In this document: in pieces, positions 3,302-43,006 of the stretch
How the letters are laid out: each line of letters starts with the position of its first letter
Position numbering within the stretch: position 1 is the first letter of the stretch
Assembly (NCBI GenBank): GCA_965219995.1
Contig: CBDCOX010000002.1
Span: 5,088,001 to 5,152,000 of the forward strand
Direction of reading: 5' to 3'
Length of the DNA: 64,000 bases
From: Candidatus Latescibacterota bacterium
Lineage (GTDB): Bacteria; Latescibacterota; UBA2968; GCA-2709665
Notes under the pieces: model-generated
What the model was told of the DNA's origin: nothing
Seen by the model: only the letters and a program-made list of their open reading frames with translations
Databases searched by the model: none
Program-made: the position numbers and the translations under genes

Positions 3302-3529
3302 TATCCGTACATCCTTCCGGACGATATGTGGACATTCCCTGCACCATGCGGCATCGAGGCGGCATTGCCGCGGAAACTCCGCATGGTACGGCGCCGGTTC
3401 ATGCGATGCCGGTCCGAGTGAAATCTCCCACCGTCTTTGACGCCCCAGTCATGCCGGATGTTTCGCAAAAAAGCCACCGGGCCGCCATTCTTTCGACGGC
3501 CCGGCCTTGCGGGATCGATGTCCGATGCA

Positions 3530-4324: not shown

Positions 4325-4361
4325 GACAGGGCCTCCTGCGGTGGGGCCGCGAGGGTTGCGT

Positions 4362-5486: not shown

Positions 5487-5511
5487 TCCGTAACGATATC
5501 CTTATTTTCCA

Positions 5512-5690
5512 GTTATTACCAGGAGCAGTAAATAGTGGACAGTGGACAGTGGCCAGTAAAAGGCGGTGAGAGGGAAGACGTTAGACGTGAGATGATATGA
5601 TTGCGCCGTGCGGTTTCATTGCTTGCCAAAGGCATATAGGAACATCCAGTCAGGCAATGACGTCTTCTCCCGTCTCACCGATTTCAGGCG
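5512..5690. repeat. MITE-like element, family A, copy 1
   Basis: Near-exact reverse complement of 11680-11872; heptamer repeats GTGGACA; core shared with the copies at 26.0, 30.4 and 60.0 kb. Confidence 0.85.
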
Positions 5691-5733
5691 TCGCCATCGG
5701 TCGCCGGGCCGGATGACGGACGTCTGCGGCGCT

Positions 5734-9729: not shown

Positions 9730-10032
9730 TGCTGTTTTCCTTTGGAAGACGCCGGGTGCGGCTGCCTGGCGGTCCGTTCGCCGGGGTCCGGCACGGGTTT
9801 CCGCGCGGCTGTGCAAGACCCTCGATGGCGGCGCGGACGCGCCGGGGGGCGAATCAAGATATGGCTTATTCAATGGGGAACAAGAGAAATCAGGGCCGGG
9901 TTTCACGTGCCTGTTCCGCTTGACGCAAGGTCGCTTTCGGGTTAACTTTTCGGCAGGTCGCGTCGTTCGCGGTACCATTCCATCCGTCCGCCTTCAACCC
10001 TGTCCGAATAGACCGGCACGCGGTCACAACCG

Positions 10033-10317
10033 ATGTCCGAAACCCTTCCCGTGGTCAGGCTCTTATCCAGGAACGACTGCCATCTGTGCGACGTCGCGAA
10101 AGGGCGCATCCGGGTGGCCGGTAGGCGTGTCCCGTTCCGTCTGGAGATCGTCGACGTCGATAGCGATCCTGAACTGGCCGCGCGATATACCGAACGGGTT
10201 CCCGTCGTACAGGTGAACGGTGAAGAGTTGTTTTCCTTCCGGGTCAACGAGAGGGTCCTGGTGCGAAAGCTGAAGTCGCTGTCGTCCCGGCCGAGGAGAA
10301 GCGATGGGTGGGGATGA
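10033..10317 (+). CDS. Glutaredoxin-like protein (DUF836/NrdH-like)
   Basis: CHLC active site and RVPVV cis-Pro motif. Confidence 0.85.
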   Translation: MSETLPVVRLLSRNDCHLCDVAKGRIRVAGRRVPFRLEIVDVDSDPELAARYTERVPVVQVNGEELFSFRVNERVLVRKLKSLSSRPRRSDGWG

Positions 10318-11638: not shown

Positions 11639-11679
11639 CGTTCAGGAAGTGCATCCGGGATTGTGTATATTACGGGGGG

Positions 11680-11872
11680 CGCCTGAAATCGGTGAGACGG
11701 GAGACGGGAGACGGTAGAAGACGTCATTGCCTGACCGGATGTTCCTATATGCCTTTGGCAAGCAATGAAACCGCAGGGCGCAATCACATCATCTCACGTC
11801 TTACGTCTACCCTCTCACCGCCTTTTACTGACCACTGGCCACTGTCCACTATCTACTGCTCTTGGTAATAAC
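11680..11872. repeat. MITE-like element, family A, copy 2 (inverted relative to copy 1)
   Basis: Reverse complement of 5512-5690 with extra GAGACGG heptamers. Confidence 0.85.
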
Positions 11873-11892
11873 GTCCAGAAGGGAGGCGAAAC

Positions 11893-11946
11893 ATGAGGCT
11901 GACCGCGACAATCCACCCGACCTATCCGCCTCCTGAGGGCTTCTGA
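11893..11946 (+). CDS. Possible 17-aa small ORF (MRLTATIHPTYPPPEGF)
   Basis: GGGAGG RBS at 11881-11886, 6 nt before the ATG; no other support. Confidence 0.25.
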   Translation: MRLTATIHPTYPPPEGF

Positions 11947-12072
11947 CGGATTCATAGCCGGTTATTTCACGACTCGATTGCCTCTCCGGAGCCGCGGGTA
12001 GGATTATGTCCCGTGGTTTTTTTGTGGCCGCAGGTGCGGTCTGTACGCAACACGGAGGAGACGATCGAGCTT

Positions 12073-12465
12073 ATGTATCATCCGGATTTCTGGGAAGTAC
12101 AGCTGGAACAACGCGAACTGGAAAAGGTCCCCAACGAGGACGGCCTCTGGTTCGAGTCGCGGGAAGACAGGCGGCTGCGATACATGTGGGAGGACCGGGT
12201 CGCGGCAGCGGCGTTGCGGATTCTCGCTGCGGTGCCGGGCTGCCTGACGGAAAAACAGAGGGAGGCGACGCTGCTGTATTTCTGCCACGGGAAGACGCAG
12301 CGCGAAATCGCGGAGATCATGGGAATTTCCAGGCGCGTGGTCAGCCAGCACCTTTTCGGTATTACGCGCGGCGGGCGGAAGGTGGGTGGCGCGGTACGTA
12401 AATTGAGAAAGTTCTGTAAGGATGAGGGGTTGGGATTCGGTGTCCGCGGATCCGCATCGTCCTGA
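12073..12465 (+). CDS. Stand-alone sigma-70 region 4 HTH protein
   Basis: LTEKQREATLLYFCHGKTQREIAEIMGISRRVVSQHL; GGAGG upstream; no region 2 visible. Confidence 0.8.
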   Translation: MYHPDFWEVQLEQRELEKVPNEDGLWFESREDRRLRYMWEDRVAAAALRILAAVPGCLTEKQREATLLYFCHGKTQREIAEIMGISRRVVSQHLFGITRGGRKVGGAVRKLRKFCKDEGLGFGVRGSASS

Positions 12466-12480
12466 ACGTCGACAGCAGGT

Positions 12481-13683
12481 TCAGACCGCCCATCTTCGCA
12501 TCTTTTCTTCGTCAAGTTCAACGCCCAGCCCGGGCAGTTCGAAGGGTTCCAGCGTACCGTCCCGGTACCTGAACGGCGTTTTGCAGACGTCGTCCACCAG
12601 AAGGGCGGGCCCCACGAGGTCCGAGGGAACGGTGACGTTTTCGGATGCCACGGCGAGGTGCACGAATGCGGCGGTGCCGGGCCCCATTTCCACGGTGCTG
12701 CCCAGCAGCACGGGGATTCCCGCGGCCTGCGCGACGTGGATCAGGCGCTGGCTGCGCAGGATGCCGCCGGCCTGGGAGGGGATCAGGTTGAAGACGTCCA
12801 CGGCCCGGCGGCGCACGAGCGCCGTGGAGAAGCCATCGTCGAGATCGGCCACGTGTTCGATGATCTGGACGGGGGTCTGTTTCCTGACGCGCGCCAGCGA
12901 GCATGCCGCTGCATCGGCGTTCCTGTTGATCCGCTGGGGATCGTCGTTGGCCACGGCGCGATTCACCGCAACCACCGGTGTTTCGCATGCGTCGATGCCG
13001 GCCGCGGCCATATCCCGGATCTTTGCAATGGCTTCGTCCTCTTCCCACGCGCCGCTGGCGTCGGCCTTCAGATAGACGTCAGGGCCCGCCACCTCGCGGA
13101 ACCGCGCGATTCGTTCCAGGTCGCGTGAATGATCCTCGCCGACCTTCAATTTGAATGCGCGAAGTCCCCGCGAGACCATGGTTTGGATTTCCTCTTCAAG
13201 CGCGTCGAGCTCTTCGTGCAGCGAAAGGCCCCGCCGCATATAGGCGACCCAGCAGACGTGCACGCGTTCGTGACGGCGTCCGCCAAGGAGTTCGTACAGG
13301 GGGGCGCCGTAATGTTTTCCGGCCAGGTCGAGCAACGCGATCTCCACGCCGAACAGGATGAGACCCCGGAGCTCCGGGTGAATGCCGGCTGGCAGTTCCG
13401 CGGCGATACCCCTGTGCAAGGCGTGGCGATCGGCGACGTCTCCGTCCTTCAACTCCCGCAAGAGGAAATCGCACAGATCGGCGCCCGCGAGAGGGTTCAT
13501 GCGGTCCGCAATGTCCGGGACTTCGCCCAGCCCGACGTGCTCCGTATCCGTGAAGAACTCCAGAATCTGATATCTCGATCGACTCAGGTCCTCGTCGGGC
13601 TGGAGGCCCTGCGGATCCGCGGCATAGGTGGTGTAAATGCGCGGAACCGAGACTTCCCGCACGTGGATGTCGACGATCTTCAC
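12481..13683 (-). CDS. Mandelate racemase/muconate lactonising enzyme family protein
   Basis: GLGE, EIALLDLAGK, PLYELLGG, FKLKVG, DASGAW, ETP, PGLGVELD. Confidence 0.88.
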   Translation of the reverse strand: MKIVDIHVREVSVPRIYTTYAADPQGLQPDEDLSRSRYQILEFFTDTEHVGLGEVPDIADRMNPLAGADLCDFLLRELKDGDVADRHALHRGIAAELPAGIHPELRGLILFGVEIALLDLAGKHYGAPLYELLGGRRHERVHVCWVAYMRRGLSLHEELDALEEEIQTMVSRGLRAFKLKVGEDHSRDLERIARFREVAGPDVYLKADASGAWEEDEAIAKIRDMAAAGIDACETPVVAVNRAVANDDPQRINRNADAAACSLARVRKQTPVQIIEHVADLDDGFSTALVRRRAVDVFNLIPSQAGGILRSQRLIHVAQAAGIPVLLGSTVEMGPGTAAFVHLAVASENVTVPSDLVGPALLVDDVCKTPFRYRDGTLEPFELPGLGVELDEEKMRRWAV

Positions 13684-13701
13684 GGGTGCGTACCTCCCGT
13701 T

Positions 13702-14040
13702 TCAAACGGGGCCGGTCGTGCCGAGCTGATTTCGCGAATACGACAGGAGGGCGGCCGTGAGGATGCTGGCAATGAGCAGCACGCCCGCGGGCATCAGCTT
13801 TCGGGTCCTGATGAACCGGCTCAGCGAAATTCCGGTAAGCAGCAGGGATAGCATCAGGCCGATGAGTAAACCCGTTGCCGGATCGGTCATTCCGGTCCAG
13901 CAGGCATAGAGCGCGACCAGGCCGCTGATGCCGCCCGCGGCGAGCGAAACCGAACTGTCCGACTTGAGCTTGCCCATGACGCCGCCCGCGATCAGCAGGA
14001 TGCCGTAGAACGCCAGGACGGTTTGCGCGAGTTGAAGCAT
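13702..14040 (-). CDS. TMEM14/FAX1-like small membrane protein
   Basis: YGILLIAGGVMGKLKSDSSVSLAAGGISG and RFIRTRKLMPAG match the TMEM14 pattern; start at the ATG at 14040. Confidence 0.8.
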   Translation of the reverse strand: MLQLAQTVLAFYGILLIAGGVMGKLKSDSSVSLAAGGISGLVALYACWTGMTDPATGLLIGLMLSLLLTGISLSRFIRTRKLMPAGVLLIASILTAALLSYSRNQLGTTGPV

Positions 14041-14066
14041 GCGATTCCTCCGGTTGCGGTTGACGT

Positions 14067-15071
14067 TCACCCGGTGCGGTATTTGTCGACAGTGGCCATA
14101 TCCAGCTTCACGCCCAGCCCCGGGCCTTCGGGCAGAACAAAGTGCCCGTCTTCTACGACCAGGGCGCCGTTCACGACGTCGGCCACGCGGGTGAACGGCA
14201 GTTCGTCGCACGGCAGGGTCGCGTTGGGTATGGTGGCCTGTACGTGCACGGAATAGGCCGCGAGGACGCCCAGGCACAACCCTCCCATCTGCACCCAGCA
14301 CGGCACGTCGTCGGCTTCCGCGAGGGCGGCGGACTTCTTCACCTGCTGCGCCGGCCCCCCCAAATTGACGTAATCGATGCATTCGGCCTTCAGCGCGTTC
14401 AATACCCCTCCCGGCGGCCCCAGGTGCAGCGCGATGGGAATATGGGTCTTCTCGCGGAGGAGGCGGTACCAGTCCAGGTTGTTCTTTCGCACGGGATCTT
14501 CGAAGTTGGCGACGGTCCCGATGGGTTCCAGTTCGCCCGCCAGGCGTGCGGCGGCGCTGGGTCGCTGAAAAGCGGTATTGGGATCGACGCCGACGGTGTA
14601 ATCCGGTCCGGCGGCCTCCTTCATGAGCCGGACCGTTTCCACGATGTTCCACGGGCGCGCCTTGAGCTTGTGGTTGGTGAAGCCCTGAGCGGCGCCGACC
14701 GCGGCTTCGGCCGCCGTCTCCTCGGGCTGCATGGCGCAGGACCAGTACGAAACGGGGATGCGGTCACGGACCTTTTCGCCAAGGAAACGCCAGAGCGGGA
14801 TGCCGTAGGCCTGTCCGGCGACGTCCAGGAGCGCGCACGTGAAGGGGTCGGGATGCGCGAACGGATCCAGGGAAAGGGGATCCTGCCCGGCGAGCGCGGC
14901 GGCCGCATCGGCGAACTGGGCGGGTTCGCCCTGGCATTCGCCGATGCCCTCGATTCCGCCGTCGGTGTGAATGCGGCACAGCGTGATGGAATAGATCTTG
15001 GGATGGTATCTGGCGATGGGCGGAATGGGCGGAATTTCCACTTCGAACAGGTCGACTTCGGTGATTTTCAC
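14067..15071 (-). CDS. Mandelate racemase/muconate lactonising enzyme family protein
   Basis: GIEGIGE, ALLDVAGQ, HKLK, DPN, EDP, PEGPGLGV. Confidence 0.85.
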   Translation of the reverse strand: MKITEVDLFEVEIPPIPPIARYHPKIYSITLCRIHTDGGIEGIGECQGEPAQFADAAAALAGQDPLSLDPFAHPDPFTCALLDVAGQAYGIPLWRFLGEKVRDRIPVSYWSCAMQPEETAAEAAVGAAQGFTNHKLKARPWNIVETVRLMKEAAGPDYTVGVDPNTAFQRPSAAARLAGELEPIGTVANFEDPVRKNNLDWYRLLREKTHIPIALHLGPPGGVLNALKAECIDYVNLGGPAQQVKKSAALAEADDVPCWVQMGGLCLGVLAAYSVHVQATIPNATLPCDELPFTRVADVVNGALVVEDGHFVLPEGPGLGVKLDMATVDKYRTG

Positions 15072-15118
15072 TGCGGGCCTCCTTTGAAACGCGCGAGCCG
15101 TCTATCGGTCTTTTCCAG

Positions 15119-16621
15119 CTACCGGTTTCGGGTTCGCAGACACTGGCCGACGGCCGCGAGGCAGACTTCGACGACGGTGTCCGTATTCATGACAAGGGCG
15201 TGCACGTCGTCGCGATTGCCGGACATTTCGATGAGAAAGGCTGCCGGCGTGCCGCGCTCGGCCGCGTAGGAGATGCAATAGGGTTCGGGCGGACGGAATC
15301 CGGTTATGCGGTCCATATTGACCTGCTGGTACGCGCCGGCGTACGGTTTCTGGGTCAGATAACGGTCTTTCAGACGGTCCCGGATATCGGCGTGAATCGC
15401 TGCGAGCAGTTCGCCGTCTCCCTTGTGGGGAAGCATCATGATATAGTCAGCCGTATGGAAGTCGATCACGCAGAGCGGTCGGCAGCGGTCGATAATGCGC
15501 TGGATGACCCGGGTCTCCCGTTCGGACGCGGGTTTCGCGCCCATGTAATTGTAGTCCCAGGGCATCCTCACGTCCTGCGTGTATTGGAAGTTCTCCCAGT
15601 TGCAATCGAAGTTGCGGTTCAGGTCGACGCCCCTCGAGTTCTGGCGGGTGAACCGGTCGAATCCTCCCGGGTTCTGCACCGGCAGCAACTTGAAATGCAG
15701 TCTCCGGGTGTTCATCCCTTCCACGTCCGGATTCCGGCACAGGACTTCCGCAAGGCGCAGCAGGCCGTACGCGTTCTCCCACTCCCATCCGTGGATGGCG
15801 GCGCCGAAGCACATCGTGGGATTGGTCTCATCGCCGACGTTCAGGGAATAGATCGGCCTGGCGTCGCTGGAACGCCCTTCGTCCTCGACGTGGAGGTCCG
15901 GATACTGTTCCGCGGTGTCGAACATCAGGTCGACGAATCCGTCGTAGGAAAAACGTTCGGGATAGTGTTTTCCGTAACGGACGGCGTTGTTGACAATGTT
16001 GCCGAGGAAGAGGTATTTGTTCGTGCTCCCCCAGGAATTGTACCACGGGCGCACCGGCGATACGAGGTCCATCGCCACGATGCGGCCGTCTCCGACTTTC
16101 TCTTCCAGCATGACGGCGCCGCTGTTCAGGTTGGAGATGCCCAGGACGGCGACGTCTCCGGAAGTTTCCACGCCCATGATCTGACGCTGGAACATCTGGT
16201 TGGCGTAGGACTGGTCCGGTGCGCTGGTGACGGTGCCGTACCACCATACGACGTCGCCCACGGCATAGCCGCGAGTCACGTCGTTTTCGATTTCAATTCG
16301 CATCTCCGGTCGGATCCGGTCCTGCACGTGGGTCTTGCTGAAATGCAGGCCGCGGTTGCGCGCGTACTCGAACAGGCAGGAGATGACCTGCCCCCCGGAG
16401 TCCGCGAACGCGGTGACGGCGTCGTAGTCCAGATTCCGCAGGTTGCGTCCGTCGTTCACCACGGTGACGACGAATTCATGCTCGCCGAGAATGCCTTCGT
16501 CGTGAGGGTCGCTCACGAAGTTCAGGCGTCTGACCTTGCCCGGGTACAGAATGTCGAGATCGGCCGCGATCGTGCCGCCGGAACCGTCGGTAAGCAGGAG
16601 GATGTTCTGATCGGATTGCAT
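15119..16621 (-). CDS. M14 family zinc carboxypeptidase-like protein with an extra N-terminal domain
   Basis: HGWE (HxxE), NPGG, RQNSRGVDLNRNF, SERET, DFHT, IEM. Confidence 0.82.
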   Translation of the reverse strand: MQSDQNILLLTDGSGGTIAADLDILYPGKVRRLNFVSDPHDEGILGEHEFVVTVVNDGRNLRNLDYDAVTAFADSGGQVISCLFEYARNRGLHFSKTHVQDRIRPEMRIEIENDVTRGYAVGDVVWWYGTVTSAPDQSYANQMFQRQIMGVETSGDVAVLGISNLNSGAVMLEEKVGDGRIVAMDLVSPVRPWYNSWGSTNKYLFLGNIVNNAVRYGKHYPERFSYDGFVDLMFDTAEQYPDLHVEDEGRSSDARPIYSLNVGDETNPTMCFGAAIHGWEWENAYGLLRLAEVLCRNPDVEGMNTRRLHFKLLPVQNPGGFDRFTRQNSRGVDLNRNFDCNWENFQYTQDVRMPWDYNYMGAKPASERETRVIQRIIDRCRPLCVIDFHTADYIMMLPHKGDGELLAAIHADIRDRLKDRYLTQKPYAGAYQQVNMDRITGFRPPEPYCISYAAERGTPAAFLIEMSGNRDDVHALVMNTDTVVEVCLAAVGQCLRTRNR

Positions 16622-32299: not shown

Positions 32300-32476
32300 T
32301 TCGTCCGAAAAATCCGATGAGATACGCTCCGGTTCCGGGATCGGGGCCCGCCTCGGGACCTGTGCCAGCAGAAATCTGAGTTCTTTCGGGAGAAAGCTAT
32401 CGGCATCTTTGCCTGATGTCGATGTCGGATGCAGGTTCCAGGAGAAGGGTCTGGCGCCGCGGAGGTCGAACGGAAT

Positions 32477-32911
32477 ATGGCCGAGAAACTGGCTTCTGAA
32501 AAGCTGGCGTTTTACCAGAAGTTGCTGCTGGATCGAAAGAAAGACCTGCTGAAACAGACCAGCCTGGAAGATGCCGATATTGACGAACTCAGAAAAGACC
32601 GCTCGGCGGATCCGTTCGACATGGCCGGGAACGCGATTTCACTGGAGTTGATGGCGACTCTGGGTAATAACGAACGGCGCGAGCTGGCCGAGATCGACCA
32701 TGCGCTGGGCAAGATCGAAGACGGAACCTACGGCATCTGCGAAGTGTCGGGGGAGATGATCGGCGAGATGCGCCTGGAAGCCATTCCCACGGCCCGTCAT
32801 ACCATGCAGGTCCAGCAGGAGAGAGAGCGAAATCCTCAGATTGTCGACCGACCGAGGCGGCGGGCGATCTCCGCCGAAGACCTGCCCATGAGTGGAGACG
32901 AAGATACCTGA
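32477..32911 (+). CDS. dksA: DksA/TraR family transcription factor (one-Cys type)
   Basis: DPFDMA coiled-coil tip; ALGKIEDGTYGICEVSGEMIGEMRLEAIPTA. Confidence 0.9.
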   Translation: MAEKLASEKLAFYQKLLLDRKKDLLKQTSLEDADIDELRKDRSADPFDMAGNAISLELMATLGNNERRELAEIDHALGKIEDGTYGICEVSGEMIGEMRLEAIPTARHTMQVQQERERNPQIVDRPRRRAISAEDLPMSGDEDT

Positions 32912-32929: not shown

Positions 32930-32963
32930 AAAAACGGCGATTCTGAGCGGGATCGCCTTTTTT
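32930..32963 (+). terminator. Intrinsic terminator after dksA
   Basis: GGCGAT...ATCGCC stem followed by T6 and preceded by an A-run. Confidence 0.7.
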
Positions 32964-33056: not shown

Positions 33057-34019
33057 ATGGCAAACACCCGGCAGATCGTACGTCAACTGGATATTCTGAG
33101 AGAACTCTCATCTCGGCAGTACGGCGCGACAATCAAGGAACTCGTTCAGACGTTTCGCGTGACGAGGCGGACAATAGAACGCGACCTGCGCGACCTTAGC
33201 GAAGCGGGCTTTCCCCTTTATACGGACAAACAAGGCCGTGAGAACGCGTGGAAACTCATGAGCGATAGCAGCGTGCCGCCCCTGAATTTTCCGGTGGGAG
33301 AGCTGATTGCCCTGACCTACATCACTGGAATCATCGAGGAATCGCCGTTTAAAACGGAATATTGGAACATGCTCAATCGGATCCGGACAACACTGCCGGA
33401 AAAGATGCGCGTATTCCTGGAACAGGCAGCCTATCATCCTCACATCCGCGGACAGAAGGCACAAATTAAACCTCATGTATTTCAAAGAACGCAGGAAGCA
33501 ATCACGGAGCGAAGGGTCTGTAACGTGACCTACCGCGCCATCGGCACCGGGGAGAGCAAGACTTATCCCATTCTGCCATTCAGGTTCTTGTACCACTACG
33601 ATGGCGTGTATCTGCTCTGCCGCAATCCGAAATACGGAAATTTACTGACCCTGGCCGCTGAACGGATCGAGGAAATTCAGGTCACGTCCCAGGTGTTTGA
33701 CGCGGCGGAAGATTCTGATATTGAAGAGCAACTCAACCAGGCATTCGGTGTCGTTCTTGAAGCACCGATCGAGGTTAGCGTCCGCTTCTCGCCATCCCAG
33801 GTGCCGTATATCAGACAACGGATATGGCACCCCACCCAGGAGATCGAGGAATTGGACGACGACGGTATCATTCTTCACTTTCGTGCAGGTGGCCTCTATG
33901 AAATTAAGTCGTGGATTCTGAGCCACGGCGCAAGCGCCGAAGTCCTGGCGCCATCGTCCTTGCGTGCCGAAATTTCCGAGGAACTTGAAAAAAATCTGAG
34001 ATCTTACAAAAAAACCTGA
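33057..34019 (+). CDS. WYL-domain transcriptional regulator (wHTH-WYL-WCX)
   Basis: VTRRTIERDLRDL HTH; YLLC and LAAERI in the WYL region; WHPTQ and EIKSWILSHGASAEVLAPSSLR (WCX). Confidence 0.92.
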   Translation: MANTRQIVRQLDILRELSSRQYGATIKELVQTFRVTRRTIERDLRDLSEAGFPLYTDKQGRENAWKLMSDSSVPPLNFPVGELIALTYITGIIEESPFKTEYWNMLNRIRTTLPEKMRVFLEQAAYHPHIRGQKAQIKPHVFQRTQEAITERRVCNVTYRAIGTGESKTYPILPFRFLYHYDGVYLLCRNPKYGNLLTLAAERIEEIQVTSQVFDAAEDSDIEEQLNQAFGVVLEAPIEVSVRFSPSQVPYIRQRIWHPTQEIEELDDDGIILHFRAGGLYEIKSWILSHGASAEVLAPSSLRAEISEELEKNLRSYKKT

Positions 34020-34023
34020 CGAC

Positions 34024-34044
34024 ATACGACGCGGTTCGTCGCAT
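34024..34044. promoter_or_regulatory. Putative WYL operator (inverted repeat)
   Basis: ATACGAC-N7-GTCGCAT, 6/7 match, between the WYL stop and the ATPase start. Confidence 0.4.
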
Positions 34045-34172
34045 ATCCTGTTTAACTTGAGGCGTGTTCATTGGAAACACGCCTCTTTTTGTTGCCCTGC
34101 GTCCGGAATGACACGGCGAAGACGTAGACAGGCGAACCTTGGAAATCGACTGGAAGGAGAGGATCTCAATCA

Positions 34173-36959
34173 ATGGACCGACGGGAACTTCGGGAGTTCT
34201 TTTCAAAATCTGGGCATTTTTCGTCCGGCAGCGAATACAGTCTGCACCTTTCGCGCACTTACATGCTTAACATTCTCCGTGTCGCCCAGTTCAACCGGAG
34301 CATTCGGTCGGACGTCGTTGGCTGTTTGAAGGAAGATGTAGCGATTCAGGAGCTTCTGGATGTCCAGGTTGATGTGCAATATCGCGACAACAAGAAGAAG
34401 GTAATCAGGAACATCAAGCGTGCGACTCAGAATCTCGAGCGGAAGACCAATCGGCCTCCTGAACCAGGGCCCGACGCGACAGCAACCCGTCTTGTCGTGG
34501 AACGTTTCTCGCTGGACGCGGCGGCGGCCGATCTGCTCGAACTGGCGCACGGCTATACCCATTGTTCTCTCACTAAAGAGATCTGGGACGCATTCAGGCC
34601 CTCATATTCAAGTCCTGTTGACGGATTGGAGCTCTTCTTGAGACGGCCGCGGCTGGAGATCGAGAAGGGCCTCAGGGAACTGGCACGTTCCGGAATCGCA
34701 GATTGGGAGAAGGGCACTCAACCGAACGAATACCAGGATCCGGACGACCTCATCGAAGACTGGTTCCACGAAGTGTGGCATCCACCAGTGCGGGACATGG
34801 ATGAATTGACTGCACGGCTGGTTGGTGAACCATGTGTCGCTCGGTTGCGTTTCGATGACTTCGCCCACGTCGCGGACACCAAGCACGTACGCCGCACTCT
34901 GAAAGCAGTAATGCTTCAGCGATGCAACGGCGCGCAGGCAACGGGTGTCAACATCCTGCTCGTGGGCAGGGCGGGTACGGGTAAGACCGAATTCGCAAAG
35001 ACGATCGCAGCGGCATCCGGATTGACACTCTTTTCCGTTGGCGAAATGCGAAATGGCGACGAAGAATCTTGCGATACCGACAACGACAGGCGCGCCGACC
35101 GTCGCAATGAACTGCGCATGGCGCAAACACTGCTTCATACCATGCCCGAAGCCGCGATTCTTTGCGACGAGGCCCAAGACGCGCTGGAGTCGACCGGCGG
35201 CTCCCGCCTCGCCAATCACCGGCTAATAGAGGAGAATCCCGTTCCGGTAATATACACCTCGAACAGTTTGAATGACCTGGACGAGAGCATGCTCCGGCGC
35301 TTCACGATGGTTGTCAGGTTCACGGCCCACGGACCGACGCGTCAGGCTGCCATCTTGCGGCGGATGCTGGCTGAAAGCGGCATCGAGGGTATCGACGCTA
35401 CCAAATGTGCCAGACGACTTGTGGACCGTCTAGAATGTCCGCCGGGCATCCTGGCGAAGGCCATTGAAACGACCCGCCTTGTGGGAGGCACGGAATCGGA
35501 CCTTTACAATCTCTGCGAACGGTCCGAGCTCACAATCGCCGCCAATAGAGCGCGCCCACGACTGGGGGCGCCGGTACGGGCTGCCCTGCCGTGGACGGCT
35601 TTTGCGCATCTGGGGCCGGTCGCCGAAGACGTAAGACAGACCCTCGCGGCGGCGATGGATTCGAAGCCAAAAGGCATAAATATCCTCCTGTACGGACCCC
35701 CGGGAACCGGAAAAACCGAATTTGCGCGTACACTCTGCGGCGAGGCGGGCGCACGGATGTACGCGATCGGCAACAATGAGGTCGGTTCCGAGGCGCGTGT
35801 TGCCGTATTCCGCACAAAAACACTCGATTATGCGCTCGAGTCATTGGCCGACGAGCCCGACTCGGTGATTTTCTTCGATGAAATGGAGGACTTCGACAGC
35901 GTGGAGAAACACTGGCTGAATCGCATCGTGGAAGAAAATCCGGTGCCCATCATCTGGGCGTGCAACTCGATTGGCTTCTACCGGATGATTCAGCCGTTCT
36001 TCATCGACCGGATGATGCACGCGATCGAATTCCGCCGCATGTCCGTCGGCGCGAGGAAGCGTGTGTTCTCCGGAATCCTCACCAATGCACAGGTGCCTGA
36101 TCCGGAAGTACGGCGACTCGCGACGGAACTGGCGCACGACGACAAAGTGACCCCCAGGCACCTGGCTCTGGCGACGCATCAGGCGGCTATGATCGCGGGG
36201 AACGCGGATGTCATCCGGCGGAATGTTGAACAGAAGGTGAAACTGCGTTACGGCGTCCGTCCGGTCGAAAGCTTCCCAATCAAGAACTACGACCTTTCTC
36301 TGGTCAACGCGGGTACGAATCTGGAGGAATTGACCGCACGGATGGTTGGAATCGGCGCGAAGCGTTTCGCGCTCTGTTTGTACGGCCCGCCCGGAACGGG
36401 GAAGACGGCCTTTGTGCGCCACATTGCAGAACGAATGGGGATGGAATTGTTGCCGAAACGAGCTTCGGATCTGCTCAGCAAGTGGGTGGGGGAAACCGAG
36501 CAGCAGATGGCCGCCGCCTTTTCGGAAGCCGTTGAGACAGGCTCATTTCTGGTATTCGACGAGGCCGACTCCCTCCTGATGGACCGCGAGCACGCCGTGC
36601 GGTCGTGGGAAACCGGCATGGTCAACGAGTTGCTCAGCCAGATGGAGCGGCACCCGCTTCCGTTCGCGTGTACCACGAATCGGCGGGAAGCGCTCGATCC
36701 GGCCGCTGCCCGCCGCTTCATATTCAGGGTCGAGTTCTTCTACATGGACCGGCAACGCGTCGAAAAGGCTTTCAGGTTCTTCTACGGGTTTGAAGCTCCG
36801 TCGGACGCACTTGTGCTTAACAAACTCACGCCGGCGGATTTCGCAAATGTCCGTGAGCGGGCGAAGATTCTGAATTTCCTCGACGACCCGGTGCGTATCG
36901 GCCGCGCACTCGAGGAGGAATGCCGCCACAAACCCGGCGTCGCACCGCTCGGATTCTGA
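34173..36959 (+). CDS. AAA+ ATPase with three tandem AAA modules
   Basis: Walker A GRAGTGKT (34965), GPPGTGKT (35694), GPPGTGKT (36384); Walker B ILCDE, IFFDE, LVFDE; Arg-finger regions LRRF, IDRM, ARRF; C-terminal LGF. Confidence 0.92.
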   Translation: MDRRELREFFSKSGHFSSGSEYSLHLSRTYMLNILRVAQFNRSIRSDVVGCLKEDVAIQELLDVQVDVQYRDNKKKVIRNIKRATQNLERKTNRPPEPGPDATATRLVVERFSLDAAAADLLELAHGYTHCSLTKEIWDAFRPSYSSPVDGLELFLRRPRLEIEKGLRELARSGIADWEKGTQPNEYQDPDDLIEDWFHEVWHPPVRDMDELTARLVGEPCVARLRFDDFAHVADTKHVRRTLKAVMLQRCNGAQATGVNILLVGRAGTGKTEFAKTIAAASGLTLFSVGEMRNGDEESCDTDNDRRADRRNELRMAQTLLHTMPEAAILCDEAQDALESTGGSRLANHRLIEENPVPVIYTSNSLNDLDESMLRRFTMVVRFTAHGPTRQAAILRRMLAESGIEGIDATKCARRLVDRLECPPGILAKAIETTRLVGGTESDLYNLCERSELTIAANRARPRLGAPVRAALPWTAFAHLGPVAEDVRQTLAAAMDSKPKGINILLYGPPGTGKTEFARTLCGEAGARMYAIGNNEVGSEARVAVFRTKTLDYALESLADEPDSVIFFDEMEDFDSVEKHWLNRIVEENPVPIIWACNSIGFYRMIQPFFIDRMMHAIEFRRMSVGARKRVFSGILTNAQVPDPEVRRLATELAHDDKVTPRHLALATHQAAMIAGNADVIRRNVEQKVKLRYGVRPVESFPIKNYDLSLVNAGTNLEELTARMVGIGAKRFALCLYGPPGTGKTAFVRHIAERMGMELLPKRASDLLSKWVGETEQQMAAAFSEAVETGSFLVFDEADSLLMDREHAVRSWETGMVNELLSQMERHPLPFACTTNRREALDPAAARRFIFRVEFFYMDRQRVEKAFRFFYGFEAPSDALVLNKLTPADFANVRERAKILNFLDDPVRIGRALEEECRHKPGVAPLGF

Positions 36960-37008
36960 CGGCTGGCTGCGGATCGACATTTTCTGCGGACAAAGCCAAG
37001 GAGGAACG

Positions 37009-37662
37009 ATGGCTCGAAAGGACCTATCAATAGCGCGTTTAATCCGCCAGCGGATGCAGGATCTCGGTATCACCCGGGGTGAGCTTGTCCGACGTATGGG
37101 ATATGCGAATATTACCAAAGGATGTCGTCGAATCGACCAGATCTGTGGCGGCCGAGTTGAATTCGCGGAGAACCTCCGGGCCGAGCTTGCAGAGGGGCTT
37201 GAGGTGGAAGTCAACGTGATTGACGAGTCCATTGAGGTCACCCGCGCGGAATTGATTGAAGCGGAAGACAAGGCCTATCGTGCATCTTTCATGCCCCACG
37301 CGGTGATTCTGACGGAGCTAAATGTACCGACTCAGATCACGTTTTACGCGATGACCGGCGGATCCCGTCATCGGATTATTCAGTTCAAGGAAGGGTCAAA
37401 TCCGGAAACGTACGCGATACAGGCACGAGAAGCGCTTCCCAACGTGGTGCCGTTCCTGGGCGCTCCAACCGGATATGTTATCAACTACACTCCTGATTTT
37501 GCGCTGAGATTCAACAAGGATGGCAGGCTCGTCGCGAGGCTCAGCCGTGCATTCCGGGTGGGGCAATCAAGCGTTGCTATCGGCGGCAAGGAGATCGACG
37601 AGAAAACCTGGGCGTCGCTCACTGGCGACGTTGATGTCCATTCCTCGCTCGATGTAAATTGA
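37009..37662 (+). CDS. Hypothetical protein with an N-terminal Cro/XRE-like HTH
   Basis: AAGGAGG RBS, 49 nt after the ATPase; IRQRMQDLGITRGELVRRMGY resembles an HTH. Confidence 0.7.
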   Translation: MARKDLSIARLIRQRMQDLGITRGELVRRMGYANITKGCRRIDQICGGRVEFAENLRAELAEGLEVEVNVIDESIEVTRAELIEAEDKAYRASFMPHAVILTELNVPTQITFYAMTGGSRHRIIQFKEGSNPETYAIQAREALPNVVPFLGAPTGYVINYTPDFALRFNKDGRLVARLSRAFRVGQSSVAIGGKEIDEKTWASLTGDVDVHSSLDVN

Positions 37663-37751
37663 CGCATATTGTTTGGAGCAACCACCGCTCCATTTCTTAA
37701 AGAAAATCAAGCCGGGACCGAGCGTTCGAACTATACACGTGGAGACGCGTC

Positions 37752-38162
37752 ATGTCGGACGAGAAAGACAAAAACCGTAACGTACAGGGCCGGAGACGTG
37801 TGGCAGTTGACGTTGCGGCGGCAAAGAAGGCAAGGGCGGAAGCGGCCACGTGGCGGGAAATCGCCGCGAAGGCGGCCGACGATTATTCGAAGCGGGAAGG
37901 GAAATTCGCAAGGCGGCTTGCGGAATTGGAGGCTTTGGGGGCCCTGGCCAGAGGGTGTCTGGAAGCGAAGGATGCAGCCAAAGCCCTCGAGGCTGCGGCG
38001 AAGAAGTGGGAGGCAGGTGACCGAGAACGCGCAAAGCACTTCGAGGAGGAAGCGAACACTGCGATGATGGACTCCCTGGACGGATTGGACAAAGCGGACG
38101 ATCTTTGGGAGATGGAGCAGGAGGAGAAATCGACCTCGCAGGGCGGCACGAAAACACCCTAG
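37752..38162 (+). CDS. Hypothetical Ala/Glu/Lys-rich coiled-coil protein
   Basis: GGAG RBS; helical composition; co-oriented with the upstream genes. Confidence 0.6.
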   Translation: MSDEKDKNRNVQGRRRVAVDVAAAKKARAEAATWREIAAKAADDYSKREGKFARRLAELEALGALARGCLEAKDAAKALEAAAKKWEAGDRERAKHFEEEANTAMMDSLDGLDKADDLWEMEQEEKSTSQGGTKTP

Positions 38163-38321
38163 ACCCAGAACCGGGGGCCAAGCCACCGTAACATTCTTTA
38201 TTGGACTCGGAGGGTGCGTGTTCTCACACAATGTTGGCACAAGGGGGTCAGCATAACAAAGCCTGCCAATTGGCATACTGGCAGGCGGGCTGTTGACGAA
38301 ATGTCGTGGTGCGGTGGATGC

Positions 38322-38570
38322 TTAATCTATGGCGTTCAGCCTTGCTTCGTTCGCGGCGATGCGTTCCCCGAACGAATCCAATCGGGAGTCAATTTTGTCC
38401 AGGCGAACTTCGATTCTGTCGAACCGTCTATCCATACGCCGTTCCAGATCGCTTGTCATATAATACACAATTCCAAAGGTAGCGATGAAATTGGATGTTG
38501 CCAACGCCAGGACGGCCACGATGATTCTGGTGGTTTCGGCGGTCCAGAATTTACCGTTACCTGTGGTCAT
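38322..38570 (-). CDS. Small protein with one TM helix and a coiled coil
   Basis: GAGG RBS; upstream TTGACA-16-TAGATT on the minus strand (38645-38618); heptads RMDRRFDRIEVRLDKIDSRLD. Confidence 0.65.
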   Translation of the reverse strand: MTTGNGKFWTAETTRIIVAVLALATSNFIATFGIVYYMTSDLERRMDRRFDRIEVRLDKIDSRLDSFGERIAANEARLNAID

Positions 38571-38691
38571 CGGATACCCTCATATTGGCTACTTGCAGGT
38601 AGCTGTGATACTGTAGAAATCTAACAAATCGCGGGGGCTTGTCAAGCCTGACCTTGAATCGAATTACCCAGGCGAACAGAGTAGCTGAACC

Positions 38692-40161
38692 ATGGCAATG
38701 CAATACCTCTCCAAGTCCAGAATCATGGCGGGTCGCCAATGCGGGAAGCGCCTGTGGCTGGAGGCGCATCGGCGGGATCTCATCGCATATGACCCGGACG
38801 TAAAGCACCGCCTGGCGGTGGGCGAGGACGTCAATGTCGTGGCGCGTGCTCAGTATCCGGACGGGGCGTTCGTCGGATACGATGACGGGGCGGATGCCGC
38901 CATCGAGGAAACCAACCGTTTGCTGGATCAACGGCCCGGCGCGTCGATCTTTGAGGCGACATTCGCGGCGCATGGAGTTTTGATACGTGCAGATATCCTC
39001 AAGCCGCATCGGGAGGGGTTCGTTCTCATCGAAGTAAAGTCCACGACCTCGGTCAGGGCTCATTACTATGAAGATTGTGCCGTGCAGGCCTGGGTCCTGG
39101 AACGCGCGGGTCTCCGGGTCAATGCGGTCCGGCTTTGTCATATCGACAACCGGTTCGTGTATCCCGGAAACGGCGACTACCGCGGCCTGTTTCATTACGT
39201 GGACGTGACGAGAGAGGTTCAGAGACGAATCGGCATCGTCCCTGAATGGATACGGCACTACAGGGACCTGCTCGACGGCGGCGAACCGCACGTCGAGATG
39301 GGATCCCATTGTACGACGCCCTATTCATGCCCTTTTATCGGCTATTGTCGCGGCGAGGAAACCCGATATCCGTTAAGGTGCATGCCGCATCCCCACGGCA
39401 CGCGTGAGGTTACGGACGGCCTGATCGCCGACGGCGTTGAAGACATCCGCGACATCCCTGAAGGCCGGTTGCGCAACGAGAGACAGAAGTGGGTACGGCG
39501 CGTGACGATTGAAGGAACGCCGGAATTGAAGCCGGAGGCCGCCCAGGTGGGCGCGTGCGGTTATCCGCGCTATTATCTCGACTTCGAGACAGTGCAATTC
39601 GCGATTCCCATCTGGGAAGTCACGCGTCCCTTCGAGATTCTGCCGTTTCAATGGTCCTGCCACATTGAGCTCGAAAATGGCGATTTGCAGCACGAAGAAT
39701 TCCTCGACACCACCGGCAATCCTCCGATGCGTACCTGCGCGGAATCGCTCCTGAGGATCGCGGGCACGGAAGGACCGATGTTCACGTACGGGAGCTTTGA
39801 AAAGACGGTCCTGAATTCACTGTCGGCGCGCTTTCCCGATCTTGCCGAAGGATTACACGGGTTGACGGAGCGGCTCGTGGATCTCCTTCCGATCGTGCGA
39901 AGTACGTACTATCACCCGGATATGCTCGGTTCGTGGTCGATCAAGAAAGTCTTGCCGACGGTCGCGCCACATCTCGACTACGGATCGCTCGGTCAAGTCC
40001 AGGACGGCGCCGCTGCAGGAACGGCTTATTTGCGGATTATCAATCCTGAAACCGATGCCGCCGAGCGCCAGCGGCTGGAGCGGGAGTTGTTGGAATACTG
40101 CAAGCTCGACACGCTGGGGATGGTGGAACTCGTGAGATTTCTCTCCCGCGGCGACCGATAA
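38692..40161 (+). CDS. DUF2779-like protein: Cas4-like PD-(D/E)XK nuclease fused to a DEDD/RNase H-like exonuclease
   Basis: LSKS..QCGKRLWL, RADIL, IEVKS, HCTTPYSCPFIGYC; LDFET, PFQWS, SWSIKKVLP, YCKLDT. Confidence 0.85.
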   Translation: MAMQYLSKSRIMAGRQCGKRLWLEAHRRDLIAYDPDVKHRLAVGEDVNVVARAQYPDGAFVGYDDGADAAIEETNRLLDQRPGASIFEATFAAHGVLIRADILKPHREGFVLIEVKSTTSVRAHYYEDCAVQAWVLERAGLRVNAVRLCHIDNRFVYPGNGDYRGLFHYVDVTREVQRRIGIVPEWIRHYRDLLDGGEPHVEMGSHCTTPYSCPFIGYCRGEETRYPLRCMPHPHGTREVTDGLIADGVEDIRDIPEGRLRNERQKWVRRVTIEGTPELKPEAAQVGACGYPRYYLDFETVQFAIPIWEVTRPFEILPFQWSCHIELENGDLQHEEFLDTTGNPPMRTCAESLLRIAGTEGPMFTYGSFEKTVLNSLSARFPDLAEGLHGLTERLVDLLPIVRSTYYHPDMLGSWSIKKVLPTVAPHLDYGSLGQVQDGAAAGTAYLRIINPETDAAERQRLERELLEYCKLDTLGMVELVRFLSRGDR

Positions 40162-40409: not shown

Positions 40410-41213
40410 GTGGATAACGAAGAGTACCTGAAGGAAGTTAATAACGCGCTTGCGAGAGACGAAACCCTACTCGGACGTGTCTGGAAACACACTTATCCTG
40501 TTGAAAAATCTCCTGACGAGATTTCAAAGGAATTGGACAAGGCTACAAGCGGTTTCGTCTACAATTATAGGCGTTACCTTGGCGCAATGTTAAATGGAGA
40601 AATTCCCGACAAACCAACCCTTGCCAAACAGACTGAACGCGCATTGCGGAGTTTCCAAAAGCGGCATCGAGGAGTTCTAAGCAATGGGACTGAACAGGAA
40701 CTAAAGCTACGTGAGGAAAAGTGCGCATCAATCGCAAACAACCCGGAAGAAGTGGAAAGGGAGAATGCAGATATTGAGATTGAATCCATAAGACGAATTG
40801 GAGAATTCGAAAAGGCAAACGTACCGGGAATATATCTTTATACGTATCCTCGTTATTTAAGTGCGCCGATAGAACCGTCCAATGATGATTCCACCATGAG
40901 GACATTTATGAAAATTGGTATTTCCGAGAAGAATGCGCGCGAGCGTATCCGACAACAGACTACAGGAATGCCGGAACCGCCAAAGATAATCGAAATCTGG
41001 GTCGTTAATAACGATGACGACGTAAAACTGTTAGAATCCAAAATCAAGCATCACTTAAACACGATAGGTCACGGAAGGTCCGGCACCAGACGACGGGAGT
41101 GGTTCTTGACGAACGAAGAAACAGTAGTATCGACCATCGATCTAATTGGTCTCACCCGTTTCGCTGATCACGTGAAAGAAACATCTGCAAACGTGAAGAA
41201 TGTCGGTGAATAG
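40410..41213 (+). CDS. GIY-YIG (T5orf172-type) nuclease-domain protein
   Basis: GIYLY...MKIGIS...RERIRQQTTGMPE...LESKIK...REWF; AGGAGG RBS; AT-rich. Confidence 0.8.
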   Translation: MDNEEYLKEVNNALARDETLLGRVWKHTYPVEKSPDEISKELDKATSGFVYNYRRYLGAMLNGEIPDKPTLAKQTERALRSFQKRHRGVLSNGTEQELKLREEKCASIANNPEEVERENADIEIESIRRIGEFEKANVPGIYLYTYPRYLSAPIEPSNDDSTMRTFMKIGISEKNARERIRQQTTGMPEPPKIIEIWVVNNDDDVKLLESKIKHHLNTIGHGRSGTRRREWFLTNEETVVSTIDLIGLTRFADHVKETSANVKNVGE

Positions 41214-41962: not shown

Positions 41963-43006
41963 ATGAATGAGACGCAAGAACGCCTTAACCGATATTACGA
42001 AAGCAATGGCATCGCGCCTGTGGATAGCGACCTTTGTTTCGAAGATAGGTTCGAAGCATTTGGTTGTTCACAGAAATGTGAATGTCGTGTAGCCTGCAGA
42101 CTCATAAAGAAAGATGCAGACTTTTCGCCTCCGACAGACGGCGTGAGCATTAGCCGTTACTACGAGGATAGAGACTTCCACGGCTACTCAATCCCCCGTA
42201 TCTTGGTCCTTTCGCTGTCCCCGCCCGAACCAAAAAAGAAGCCTGAGATCGGTGAACCATCCAAAGAATCTCTGAACCCTCACTGGCGGGAAACCTTGGG
42301 GATAGTGCGGAGCATCCTCCATCCCTTCATTGGGGAGGAGTGTTTTCCTGAACCGGTAAGATACTGGAATGAGAACGAAAAATTAGCGGTGATTCATGCC
42401 CTCTTCGTCCACGTGAGGGCGGCGAAATGTTGTTCCAACGCCAATGGAAAGCGTCAAGAGCCTGACATTGTGTACGAGCATTGTGGAGCGTATCTCAATG
42501 AAGAATTGAGGATTCTTGAGCCTGACGTGATCATTACTCAGGGCAATAGCGCTCACGGAGTCGCAAAGAAACATGCATTTGACTCCGTGAAGCGGGTCTC
42601 GGATATCCAGGGTATCGATCCCAATCAGAACGTCGCGCATATTGCGCGTTTAAAGCTCAATCGTGCCGTAGAAGAAGGAGATGACGATCCTGTCTTTTGG
42701 CTGAAGTCGTACCATCCAAGCTATTATCGGGGCTTTTATGACCAAGCTGGCAGGAAATTCAACCATGAGAGAAAAAAGAAGGGGAGCGCAAAGCGTTGGA
42801 ATTTTGTGCGTTACGGCGAGGAGATTAGGAAATTTATCAACAATCGAACAACCTACGGTGAATATTGGGTGCGCCATCGTGCAAACCAGGGCAACCACAA
42901 GGGTTGCTCCTACAGTGTAGGGATCCGATCCACCCGGACGCACCGGTCTTCGGTCACGATATACTCGGTAGCCTGGCGTTGTTCTTGTCAGCCTGAATTT
43001 CTGTAG
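41963..43006 (+). CDS. Uracil-DNA glycosylase-fold protein; the C-terminal tail reads through a REP
   Basis: PRILVLSLSP, RAAKC, CGAYLNEELRILEPDVIITQG, SYHPSY; Cys-rich N-terminus. Confidence 0.7.
   Translation: MNETQERLNRYYESNGIAPVDSDLCFEDRFEAFGCSQKCECRVACRLIKKDADFSPPTDGVSISRYYEDRDFHGYSIPRILVLSLSPPEPKKKPEIGEPSKESLNPHWRETLGIVRSILHPFIGEECFPEPVRYWNENEKLAVIHALFVHVRAAKCCSNANGKRQEPDIVYEHCGAYLNEELRILEPDVIITQGNSAHGVAKKHAFDSVKRVSDIQGIDPNQNVAHIARLKLNRAVEEGDDDPVFWLKSYHPSYYRGFYDQAGRKFNHERKKKGSAKRWNFVRYGEEIRKFINNRTTYGEYWVRHRANQGNHKGCSYSVGIRSTRTHRSSVTIYSVAWRCSCQPEFL
42889..42913 (-). repeat. GTAG-type REP element
   Basis: Minus strand reads GTAG-GAGCAACC-CTTGT-GGTTGCCC; degenerate relative at 63251-63275. 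Confidence 0.65.

Follow-up and report, generated by a model that had tools for sequence, protein, structure and literature searches.

The 64,000-nucleotide stretch analysed here (the window) covers positions 5,088,001 to 5,152,000 of contig CBDCOX010000002.1 from a Candidatus Latescibacterota bacterium (assembly GCA_965219995.1). Downstream of a dksA-like gene it carries four co-oriented + strand genes, which encode a 320 amino acid (aa) regulator with winged helix-turn-helix (wHTH), WYL and WCX domains (33057-34019), a 928 aa ATPase with three AAA modules that we term AAA3 (34173-36959, stop codon at 36957-36959), and two small proteins of 217 aa (orf217, 37009-37662, ATG at 37009) and 136 aa (orf136, 37752-38162). 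A preliminary description of this DNA had proposed that these genes form one new defence or stress operon, in which a WYL-controlled ATPase machine acts with small partner proteins. The order and orientation of the four genes behind the dksA terminator are as it described; however, the WYL gene ends in its own terminator hairpin, and the genes therefore do not form a single operon. For comparison we use g1 for the genus of the window genome and g11 for its sister genus, and the g1 relatives of the window locus are labelled L001-L005 (L023 duplicates L005).

The regulator, its candidate operator and the AAA3 ATPase

The regulator matches the Pfam families HTH_11 (4.6e-10, residues 9-59), WYL (8.2e-10, residues 141-209) and WCX (5.9e-21, residues 237-312), all above the cut-off. 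Five PDB sequences were matched at E<=1e-3, none of them named BrxR or CapW, and including the DriD chains 9pfq, 8tp8, 7tzv and 7u02, with 9pfq (E 3.4e-12) and 8tp8 (E 4e-12) being the best solved relatives. This similarity is modest (E about 1e-12) and lies mostly over WYL-WCX, although the domain order is the same. DriD, characterised in Caulobacter, is described as a wHTH-WYL-WCX transcription activator that is itself activated by single-stranded DNA (ssDNA) (PMC13004042) and controls a DNA-damage regulon (PMC9186387), while CapW and BrxR are described as wHTH-WYL-WCX repressors heading varied defence operons, with CapW binding ssDNA (PMC11662680). The recognition-helix motif RRTIER of the window protein pairs with RRTAER in DriD, in an HTH alignment that is weak by itself (10 bits), and the DriD residues Arg37 and Arg41 are reported to contact bases and read the CGAC half-site (PMC10853764). 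The RRTIER arginines may be the counterparts of these two, a numbering assignment that we infer. The preliminary description had listed BrxR, CapW, PafBC and DriD as nucleic-acid-sensing WYL regulators, with BrxR and CapW heading anti-phage operons; that the head gene encodes a WYL regulator is confirmed, and judged by sequence and by operator the protein is probably of DriD type and nearer to that activator than to BrxR or CapW. The PADLOC WYL models that match it are CRISPR-associated ones.

The WYL stop codon and the ATPase start are separated by 153 nt, and within this region a 21-bp palindrome, ATACGACGCGGTTCGTCGCAT, is found at 34024-34044, beginning 4 nt past the WYL stop codon and 128 nt before the ATPase start. 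The operator consensus reported for Caulobacter DriD is ATACGAC(N7)GTCGTAT (PMC10853764), and the window palindrome agrees with it at 13 of the 14 specified positions, as do L001 and L002, with L003, L004 and L005 matching at 14/14. In 11 g11 loci this place is taken by a related variant box, cgCGACATACCCTGTCATAC (CGAC-N7-GTCA). When we aligned the intergenic regions of the window and its five g1 relatives (six sequences) and eleven g11 sequences, the palindrome was the best-conserved stretch, and the DNA past the hairpin described below was not conserved. It is also the sole site with <=1 mismatch to the consensus in the 64-kb window. Across the 5.4 Mb genome there are three sites at >=13/14, compared with none in three 1-Mb shuffles (3 Mb), and the window site is the only intergenic one, the other two lying inside ORFs of 437 and 708 aa. 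We judged the other sites in the genome to be chance matches, because those at 13/14 fall within long ORFs and one intergenic 12/14 site has no CGAC core in its left half-site.

An intrinsic-terminator-like hairpin is present on the + strand at 34059-34085, with a 10-bp stem, a 7-nt loop and a T run extending to 34094. It is found in all of the aligned sequences (6 g1 and 11 g11), with a stem of GAGGCGTGTT/AACACGCCTC in one genus and GAGACGCATT/AATGCGTCTC in the other (g1 and g11), such that complementarity is kept. The inverted repeat noted previously between the WYL and ATPase genes is thus real, but there are two of them, the palindrome and the terminator hairpin. Overlapping the start of the hairpin is TAACTTGA (34057-34064), with TATCTTTG in several g11 loci, which we tentatively read as a Bacteroidetes-like TAnnTTTG element and do not use as evidence.

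No conserved box was found when the sequences ahead of the WYL genes at the six g1 loci were aligned (best 7-9/14, in differing places), and autoregulation through a degenerate box 13 nt before the WYL start codon was rejected, as this box is not conserved among the six. The lack of a box upstream of the regulator's own gene is as reported for DriD (PMC13004042). A second gene for a WCX-domain (WYL-type) protein is present in the window genome, far from the window (G000:C2:2315189-2315407). Additional boxes were seen elsewhere. At the g11 locus L009 a second box is located about 100 nt upstream of a DUF2779 gene, and L045 has a g11-type box (G071:C1, 4838-4858) that lies 7 kb from WYL and precedes a gene for a DnaB-like helicase by about 100 nt. 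In L045 the ATPase is missing and an IS1-like transposase adjoins WYL, which looks like a rearrangement that left the operator before another gene.

AAA3 has a helical N-domain in about its first 250 residues, and three classical AAA modules make up the rest (about 255-460, 495-700 and 725-928), with PF00004 matching in three stretches (E 4.2e-47). At least 120 relatives were among the matches listed in the protein search, and 110 of these, 880-1050 aa long, were aligned over the length of AAA3. The Walker A (GxxGxGKT) and Walker B (hhhhDE) motifs are conserved in all three modules across these 110 homologues and the query, and are invariant in an 81-row alignment. RRF arginines are conserved in modules 1 and 3, as ARRF in module 3, and an aromatic-hydrophobic-Gly pore loop is present in module 3 only. 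This is the pore-loop-1 motif KWVGETE, encoded on the + strand at 36480-36500, in which KWVGE corresponds to residues 770-774, with V772, G773 and E776 conserved or invariant. Residues 724-864 align to VAT, Cdc48, p97 and Rix7, the best solved relatives (E down to 9e-30). An AlphaFold2 model (pLDDT 81.9, pTM 0.63) has an all-helical N-domain of ~250 residues and three alpha/beta modules, and the top Foldseek matches of the model were p97, Cdc48 and Rix7, and also Drg1, at a whole-chain TM of about 0.2-0.3 and rmsd of 15-18 A, values too low to settle the mutual arrangement of the modules. AAA3 thus resembles the Cdc48/p97/VAT/Rix7 group in its PF00004 modules, KWVGE-type pore loop, arginine fingers in the last module, and closest sequence and fold matches, but differs in having three modules rather than two, no pore loops in modules 1 and 2, and an N-domain that is modelled as all-helical. 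Because the last module alone carries the substrate-threading pore loop, AAA3 is most likely an ATP-driven protein unfoldase or remodeller, as predicted from homology, in which module 3 would translocate substrate and modules 1 and 2 would bind ATP for assembly or regulation.

No Pfam family matched the N-domain of AAA3 at E<=1, and a PF22977 WHD lead, carried by 33% of protein-atlas cluster members, was unconfirmed. Module 3 matches IetA of the IetAS defence system (PADLOC E 3.5e-31) and the NCBIfam model IteA (NF042959; 8.2e-28, residues 717-876), with the latter scoring 97.6 bits against a cut-off of 510. PADLOC v2 gave no full-length match for AAA3, only partial matches to AAA modules (IetA, TRIP13, mad8, DolB), and no complete PADLOC system match at the locus, in agreement with the original statement that the combination corresponds to no recognised system. 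A phage origin for AAA3 was rejected, since despite a match to phrog_10401 only one weak match was found in 50,697 phage records.

Linkage of regulator and ATPase across genomes and plasmids

Matches to AAA3 at E<=1e-50 are present in 40 of 168 genomes of the phylum, with a patchy distribution (5/14 other g1 genomes and 12/21 g11 genomes). The WYL gene is directly upstream of AAA3 at 6/6 g1 loci (the window and L001-L005) and at 12/15 g11 loci, and WYL orthologues occur in all AAA3-bearing genomes of both genera. The left flanks differ, being SDR, nth and dksA in g1 and NfeD and flotillin-like genes in g11, and so WYL and AAA3, with the box and hairpin between them, behave as a unit.

Outside the phylum, relatives of the ATPase are about 660-780 aa in length and contain two AAA modules (2xAAA), which align to residues ~460-928 of AAA3, with the N-domain aligning more weakly. 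Such a relative was found in 14 of 401 sampled alphaproteobacterial genomes, with a WYL/WCX gene within about 5.5 kb at eight of the 14 loci, and at four of these eight (L028, L029, L033 and L037) a DriD-type box matching at 12-13/14 ends 35-43 nt before the AAA start codon. The WCX-gene counts in five alphaproteobacterial genomes were 1, 2, 0, 1 and 1, and in three the sole copy adjoins the AAA gene. Relatives were also identified in 16 plasmid records, and WYL was within 6 kb of the AAA gene in eight of the 11 that had usable annotation and were viewed. The order is AAA-WYL-ADP-ribosylglycohydrolase-PD-(D/E)XK-UvrD in a Leisingera plasmid, AAA-DUF2779-WYL-x-PLD in a Rhodoferax plasmid (Betaproteobacteria) and AAA-WYL-x-x-SNF2 in a Pantoea plasmid (Gammaproteobacteria), and in a Thiodictyon plasmid WYL is divergent from x-AAA. 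Boxes lie 149 nt upstream of the AAA operon in Thiodictyon (13/14) and 95 nt upstream in Rhodoferax (11/14), and in Leisingera and Fuscovulum, where a glycohydrolase gene comes after WYL, that gene is preceded by a box (12/14 and 11/14).

WYL genes are therefore paired with genes for two- or three-module AAA proteins not only in Latescibacterota but also in Alpha-, Beta- and Gammaproteobacteria, beyond inherited synteny, often together with the box upstream and with nuclease genes close by (DUF2779, PD-(D/E)XK, MBL). Given a DriD-type operator between the two genes and a pairing that holds across phyla, the WYL protein very probably controls the ATPase. Of the proposed WYL-controlled ATPase machine with small partners, the pairing of WYL, operator and ATPase is thus what endures, and not the small proteins; co-occurrence of ATPase homologues with WYL, which had been suggested as a check, is seen across phyla, but the 217-aa gene is not linked outside g1. 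Our literature search found no paper on a WYL plus tandem-AAA module, although the supplements of the DriD papers (ChIP targets, 69 homologues) might mention such a neighbour.

Several of these loci have further features. L025 (G128:C1:4705000-4724999) contains WYL, ~3.9 kb of other ORFs and 2xAAA twice in tandem (201-6473 and 9004-15155), with the units about 8.7 kb apart and both WYL copies at the same identity to the query, and in L024 and L025 an ORF that looks like an ADP-ribosylhydrolase (ARH) follows the ATPase, as read from its sequence. In a Croceicoccus marinus plasmid (L057, 5024-8126) a WGR-domain protein is encoded directly upstream of 2xAAA and a PD-(D/E)XK nuclease directly downstream, with SbcCD, HEPN and ParDE genes nearby and no WYL gene. 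Genes for MBL-fold proteins (Lactamase_B_2), one with RMMBL, adjoin 2xAAA and WYL in the alphaproteobacterial loci L035, L037, L039 and L040, and in L035 a box is located between WYL and the MBL gene.

Functional readings of the cassette

Our preferred reading, to which we assign a probability of about 0.62, is that the functional unit is a two-gene cassette of a DriD-type WYL regulator, its operator and AAA3, which would provide an ssDNA-induced unfoldase within a hotspot of defence and mobile-element genes. The WYL sensor would be expressed constitutively and, by analogy with DriD, would bind ssDNA arising from DNA damage or from phage or plasmid replication. In its ssDNA-bound form it would occupy the palindrome at 34024-34044 and switch on the ATPase promoter. 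The DriD site is reported to lie over the -35 position and to keep a constant spacing to the -10 (PMC13004042), and by this geometry the hairpin probably overlaps the core promoter of the ATPase gene. As a result, ATPase transcripts would start inside or beyond the hairpin, which could end the WYL transcript without stopping those of the ATPase. AAA3 would then use ATP to unfold or remodel proteins, threading them by its last module, and the cassette would move as a unit, here within a hotspot that collects nucleases such as DUF2779.

The comparison with DriD also brings differences. Its regulon comprises multiple genes (didA, recA, recJ, bapE, dnaG), whereas the intergenic box in the window genome is unique and precedes one adjacent gene, and this box is positioned in the 3' untranslated region of the regulator gene, before the terminator. 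The DriD targets named in the consulted passages do not include a tandem-AAA ATPase, and the two systems come from distant groups, Latescibacterota and Alphaproteobacteria (Caulobacter crescentus).

A number of observations weigh against the two-gene, ssDNA-induced reading. A sigma-70 scan detected no promoter in front of the ATPase gene, no convincing -10 or -35 element could be placed, and the operator has an unusual position, with a terminator hairpin after it and 128 nt between it and the ATPase start. The 35-43 nt spacing between box and start codon at the proteobacterial loci fits a repressor as well as an activator. Linkage is also incomplete. The three g11 exceptions (L019-L021) form a paralogue group that is followed by a TPR gene and has no WYL neighbour, six of the 14 alphaproteobacterial loci have no WYL neighbour, including L030 and L032, which lie among metabolic genes, and WYL is not nearby at three of the 11 plasmid loci. 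The paralogue group and the six alphaproteobacterial loci suggest that the ATPase can work without a local regulator. Furthermore, synteny within g1 and g11 is inherited, and the independent cases of linkage are consequently lineages (about two in Latescibacterota plus the proteobacterial cases) rather than loci. Finally, modules 1 and 2 have no pore loops and the unfoldase prediction draws on the homology of one module.

The alternative closest to the preliminary description, a four-gene defence machine in which orf217 and orf136 are partners or adaptors of the ATPase, is in our view very unlikely. The 49-nt gap between the ATPase stop and the orf217 ATG, with a strong ribosome-binding site (AAGGAGGA) just before the ATG, is present as described, there is no terminator-like + strand site between the two genes, all four genes point the same way, and within g1 an orf217 covering at least 203 query residues is found only in the six genomes with the ATPase. 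In the relatives, however, the ATPase-orf217 gap widens to 180-428 nt (L001, L002, L004, L005) or to 2.3 kb with three ORFs (L003), and orf136, which is present in L001-L005, is 0.09-5 kb from orf217 (0.7-5 kb in L002-L005). Two of the six genomes have a damaged orf217, with the locus copy in G056 restricted to residues 5-146 and an in-frame TGA in G050; G056 also has an intact second copy elsewhere in the genome, and orf217 fragments with stops occur at unrelated places in three g1 genomes lacking the ATPase. A tblastn search of the 15 g11 loci (E 1e-4) detected neither gene, both are absent from the proteobacterial loci, and the family profile found orf217 in 0/21 g11 genomes. In Alphaproteobacteria orf217 was found in 2/301 genomes, as the N-terminal part only. 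Within the phylum the family is confined to g1 and two genomes of another family (G165, G166), where it is on contigs apart from the AAA genes.

The protein itself is built like a stand-alone XRE regulator, and its family is large and unannotated, with 755 cluster representatives at E<=1e-3. Residues 1-92 form an XRE/Cro-type HTH, ahead of an alpha/beta C-domain (AlphaFold2 pLDDT 93.3), and the HTH label given to the protein previously holds by fold, with matches to 434 repressor (TMt 0.70) and, in VIA, to HigA antitoxins, the CapH N-domain and 434 repressor (Z 7.9-8.4); a profile search of the PDB gave E 0.0046 for this domain. No fold match was obtained for the C-domain, the hit lists being filled by the HTH domain, and neither orf217 nor orf136 had a hit in Pfam, PADLOC, NCBIfam or PHROGs. 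The orf136 product is charged and rich in Ala, Glu and Lys, with no usable protein-atlas match, and orf136 is a real + strand gene, as substitutions by codon position against three orthologues (15/11/28, 25/15/47 and 39/29/63) are mostly at the third. Both orf217 and orf136 are separate, genus-specific island genes and not conserved ATPase partners, the role that had been proposed for them, as they are confined to g1 and are separated from the ATPase by insertions in the relatives.

Two other readings concern the same WYL-operator-ATPase cassette and are specific versions of it; the cassette may serve phage defence, DNA-damage tolerance or both. It is unlikely, although less so than the four-gene machine, that the regulator is a CapW/BrxR-like repressor released by ssDNA, in an anti-phage system where the ATPase would be an abortive-infection or phage-protein-targeting effector and nucleases such as DUF2779 co-effectors. 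As with CapW and BrxR, the WYL gene is immediately upstream of variable cargo in defence islands, with orthologues at 57-58% identity heading other cargo in G062 and G090. CapW and BrxR themselves head varied defence operons and CapW binds ssDNA (PMC11662680), the ATPase relatives are plasmid-borne, the locus is a defence and mobile-element hotspot, module 3 resembles IetA, and the box spacing at proteobacterial loci would suit promoter occlusion. However, the named PDB matches of the regulator at E<=1e-3 are DriD and none is BrxR or CapW, the operator corresponds to the consensus of DriD, which activates (PMC13004042), the window regulator has its own terminator, and the phage records yielded the single weak match given above. 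The IetA similarity extends to one module only; IetA profiles cover 262-395 positions and one module, against three modules and another N-domain in AAA3, and the score is far below the cut-off. Among nine ORFs scanned at 32.4-43.0 kb there was no peptidase family and hence no IetS-like subtilase partner.

Somewhat less improbable, but still tentative, is a DNA-damage response module in which the ATPase, like eukaryotic Cdc48/p97, would pull trapped or modified proteins off damaged DNA, together with repair nucleases and ADP-ribose-removing enzymes. DriD is reported to control a DNA-damage regulon (PMC9186387), the best solved relatives of the ATPase are Cdc48/p97-type unfoldases, and endonuclease III (nth) and dksA are among the left neighbours in the window. 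Relatives also adjoin AddAB-like PD-(D/E)XK and UvrD pairs, SbcCD, DNA polymerase II and RecB-like nucleases, as well as MBL-fold proteins, ADP-ribosylglycohydrolases, and macro and WGR domain proteins. Against this, the gene is patchy within the genus and is deleted or replaced in close relatives, which would not be expected of a core repair function. In addition, the nth-dksA flank does not extend to g11, and the operator is unique to the ATPase gene, so there is no wider regulon in the window genome.

The nearest printed idea to the WYL-AAA pairing comes from Iyer, Burroughs and Aravind, who in 2022 predicted ARG-centric anti-ADP-ribosylation systems for which a WYL regulator, an ADP-ribosylglycohydrolase (ARG) and a restriction-endonuclease fold are common themes (PMC9503650). 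The Leisingera and Fuscovulum plasmids, with AAA, WYL, ADP-ribosylglycohydrolase, (HEPN) and PD-(D/E)XK genes, resemble these systems. However, the term 'AAA+' is missing from the main text of that paper (PMC9503650), and there was no ARG gene among the nine window ORFs scanned.

It is possible, though we put this forward tentatively, that the DriD-type WYL gene, operator and tandem-AAA gene constitute an undescribed, horizontally mobile, ssDNA-triggered effector cassette that ranges from Latescibacterota to Gammaproteobacteria, with a new classical AAA unfoldase architecture in which threading is restricted to the last of three modules. Together with island nucleases such as DUF2779 it would represent either a new anti-phage or anti-plasmid class or a bacterial counterpart of p97-like extraction in DNA damage. 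A DriD-like operator in a distant uncultured phylum provides a regulatory hypothesis for a family annotated only as 'AAA family ATPase', and the pair of DriD box and WYL gene appears to travel as a portable switch together with its cargo. As the pairing is also carried on plasmids of culturable bacteria (Rhodoferax, Leisingera, Fuscovulum, Novosphingobium and Pantoea), its function is directly testable. If the reading is correct, a bacterial ssDNA-induced Cdc48-like unfoldase would be relevant to research on both phage defence and DNA repair, and genes that recur beside it, such as DUF2779, would for the first time have a functional setting.

Flanking genes and the variable island

The dksA-like gene (32429-32911) precedes the cassette and is followed by a terminator-like + strand hairpin at 32936-32957 (9 pairs and a T run), which is kept in the g1 alignment and marks the left edge of the cassette in g1. 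GC content is 0.61-0.67 at 27-31.5 kb, 0.53-0.60 over the cassette and 0.47-0.55 at 40-44.5 kb. Downstream, on the + strand, are genes for a 489 aa DUF2779 protein (38692-40161; PF11074 1.9e-37), with a weak Cas4-like N-terminus (Cas4 HMM 0.003) and an RNase H-like DUF2779 domain, and a Pfam T5orf172 protein (40410-41213), and a UDG-like ORF (41963-43006) that at 23.8 bits is just under the Pfam cut-off of 24.3; the latter two are within a low-GC stretch. Nuclease genes are therefore present downstream, as had been stated. DUF2779 occurs as 13 copies in 12 of 53 genomes of the order, 10 of the 13 being 6-15 kb from a WYL orthologue, and is also a neighbour of AAA and WYL in L037 and in plasmids of Rhodoferax and Sphingobium. 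As copies within a genus are inherited, about five independent cases stand behind these numbers. Among papers mentioning DUF2779, as judged from titles and abstract openings, there was no functional study of it.

The genes after the ATPase vary among relatives and include PDDEXK_4, DUF2357 with PDDEXK_7, GmrSD, RmuC, DUF4276 with AAA_21, NucS_C-like ORFs, PIN and Gp49/HTH pairs, five kinds of transposase (Mutator, IS1595, IS110, IS1 and rve), and also ordinary genes (DnaB, M48 peptidase, outer-membrane barrel). The cassette thus sits in a hotspot of nucleases, toxin-antitoxin pairs, known defence genes and insertion sequences. In G045, of the same genus, a WYL pseudogene (one TAA; residues 1-303) is joined to the right-flank genes W43058 and W44654 (L048, G045:C9, 6563-8540), so that about 9 kb has been deleted, starting at the ATPase gene and taking in the UDG-like ORF (up to about 43.3 kb in the window). 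Elsewhere the WYL orthologue is followed by an insertion sequence and other ORFs (G071) or by Sel1-repeat ORFs (G090), and in L047 (G062:C794, 1457-6563) a 58%-identical WYL heads a 125-aa ORF, a single-module AAA protein of 486 aa whose N-domain is a PF22977 WHD, and a P-loop protein of 383 aa that is UvrD_C/AAA_19-like. A transposase-like ORF follows this cargo, recognised from its sequence.

Between orf136 and DUF2779 there is an 82-aa ORF on the - strand (38322-38570) without a family match. Its surroundings (38261-38645) include the best promoter-like site of the region (TTGACA, a 16-nt spacer and TAGATT, with TG) and its own terminator hairpin (38286-38261), and the ORF is 93% identical in L001 and L002. 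Beside the WYL-less g11 paralogue we observed DUF4276 with AAA_21 (L020, 15170-17133), a pair that we take to be PARIS-like, an HATPase_c_3 protein with a ResIII/PLD helicase (L021, 13025-17288), and GmrSD with RmuC (L019, 3236-5158). S-adenosylmethionine lyase-like ORFs (cluster c9) recur in the variable stretch of g1, as in L003 (14115-14864; 26.4 bits, below the cut-off of 28), and are also found after the paralogue in g11.

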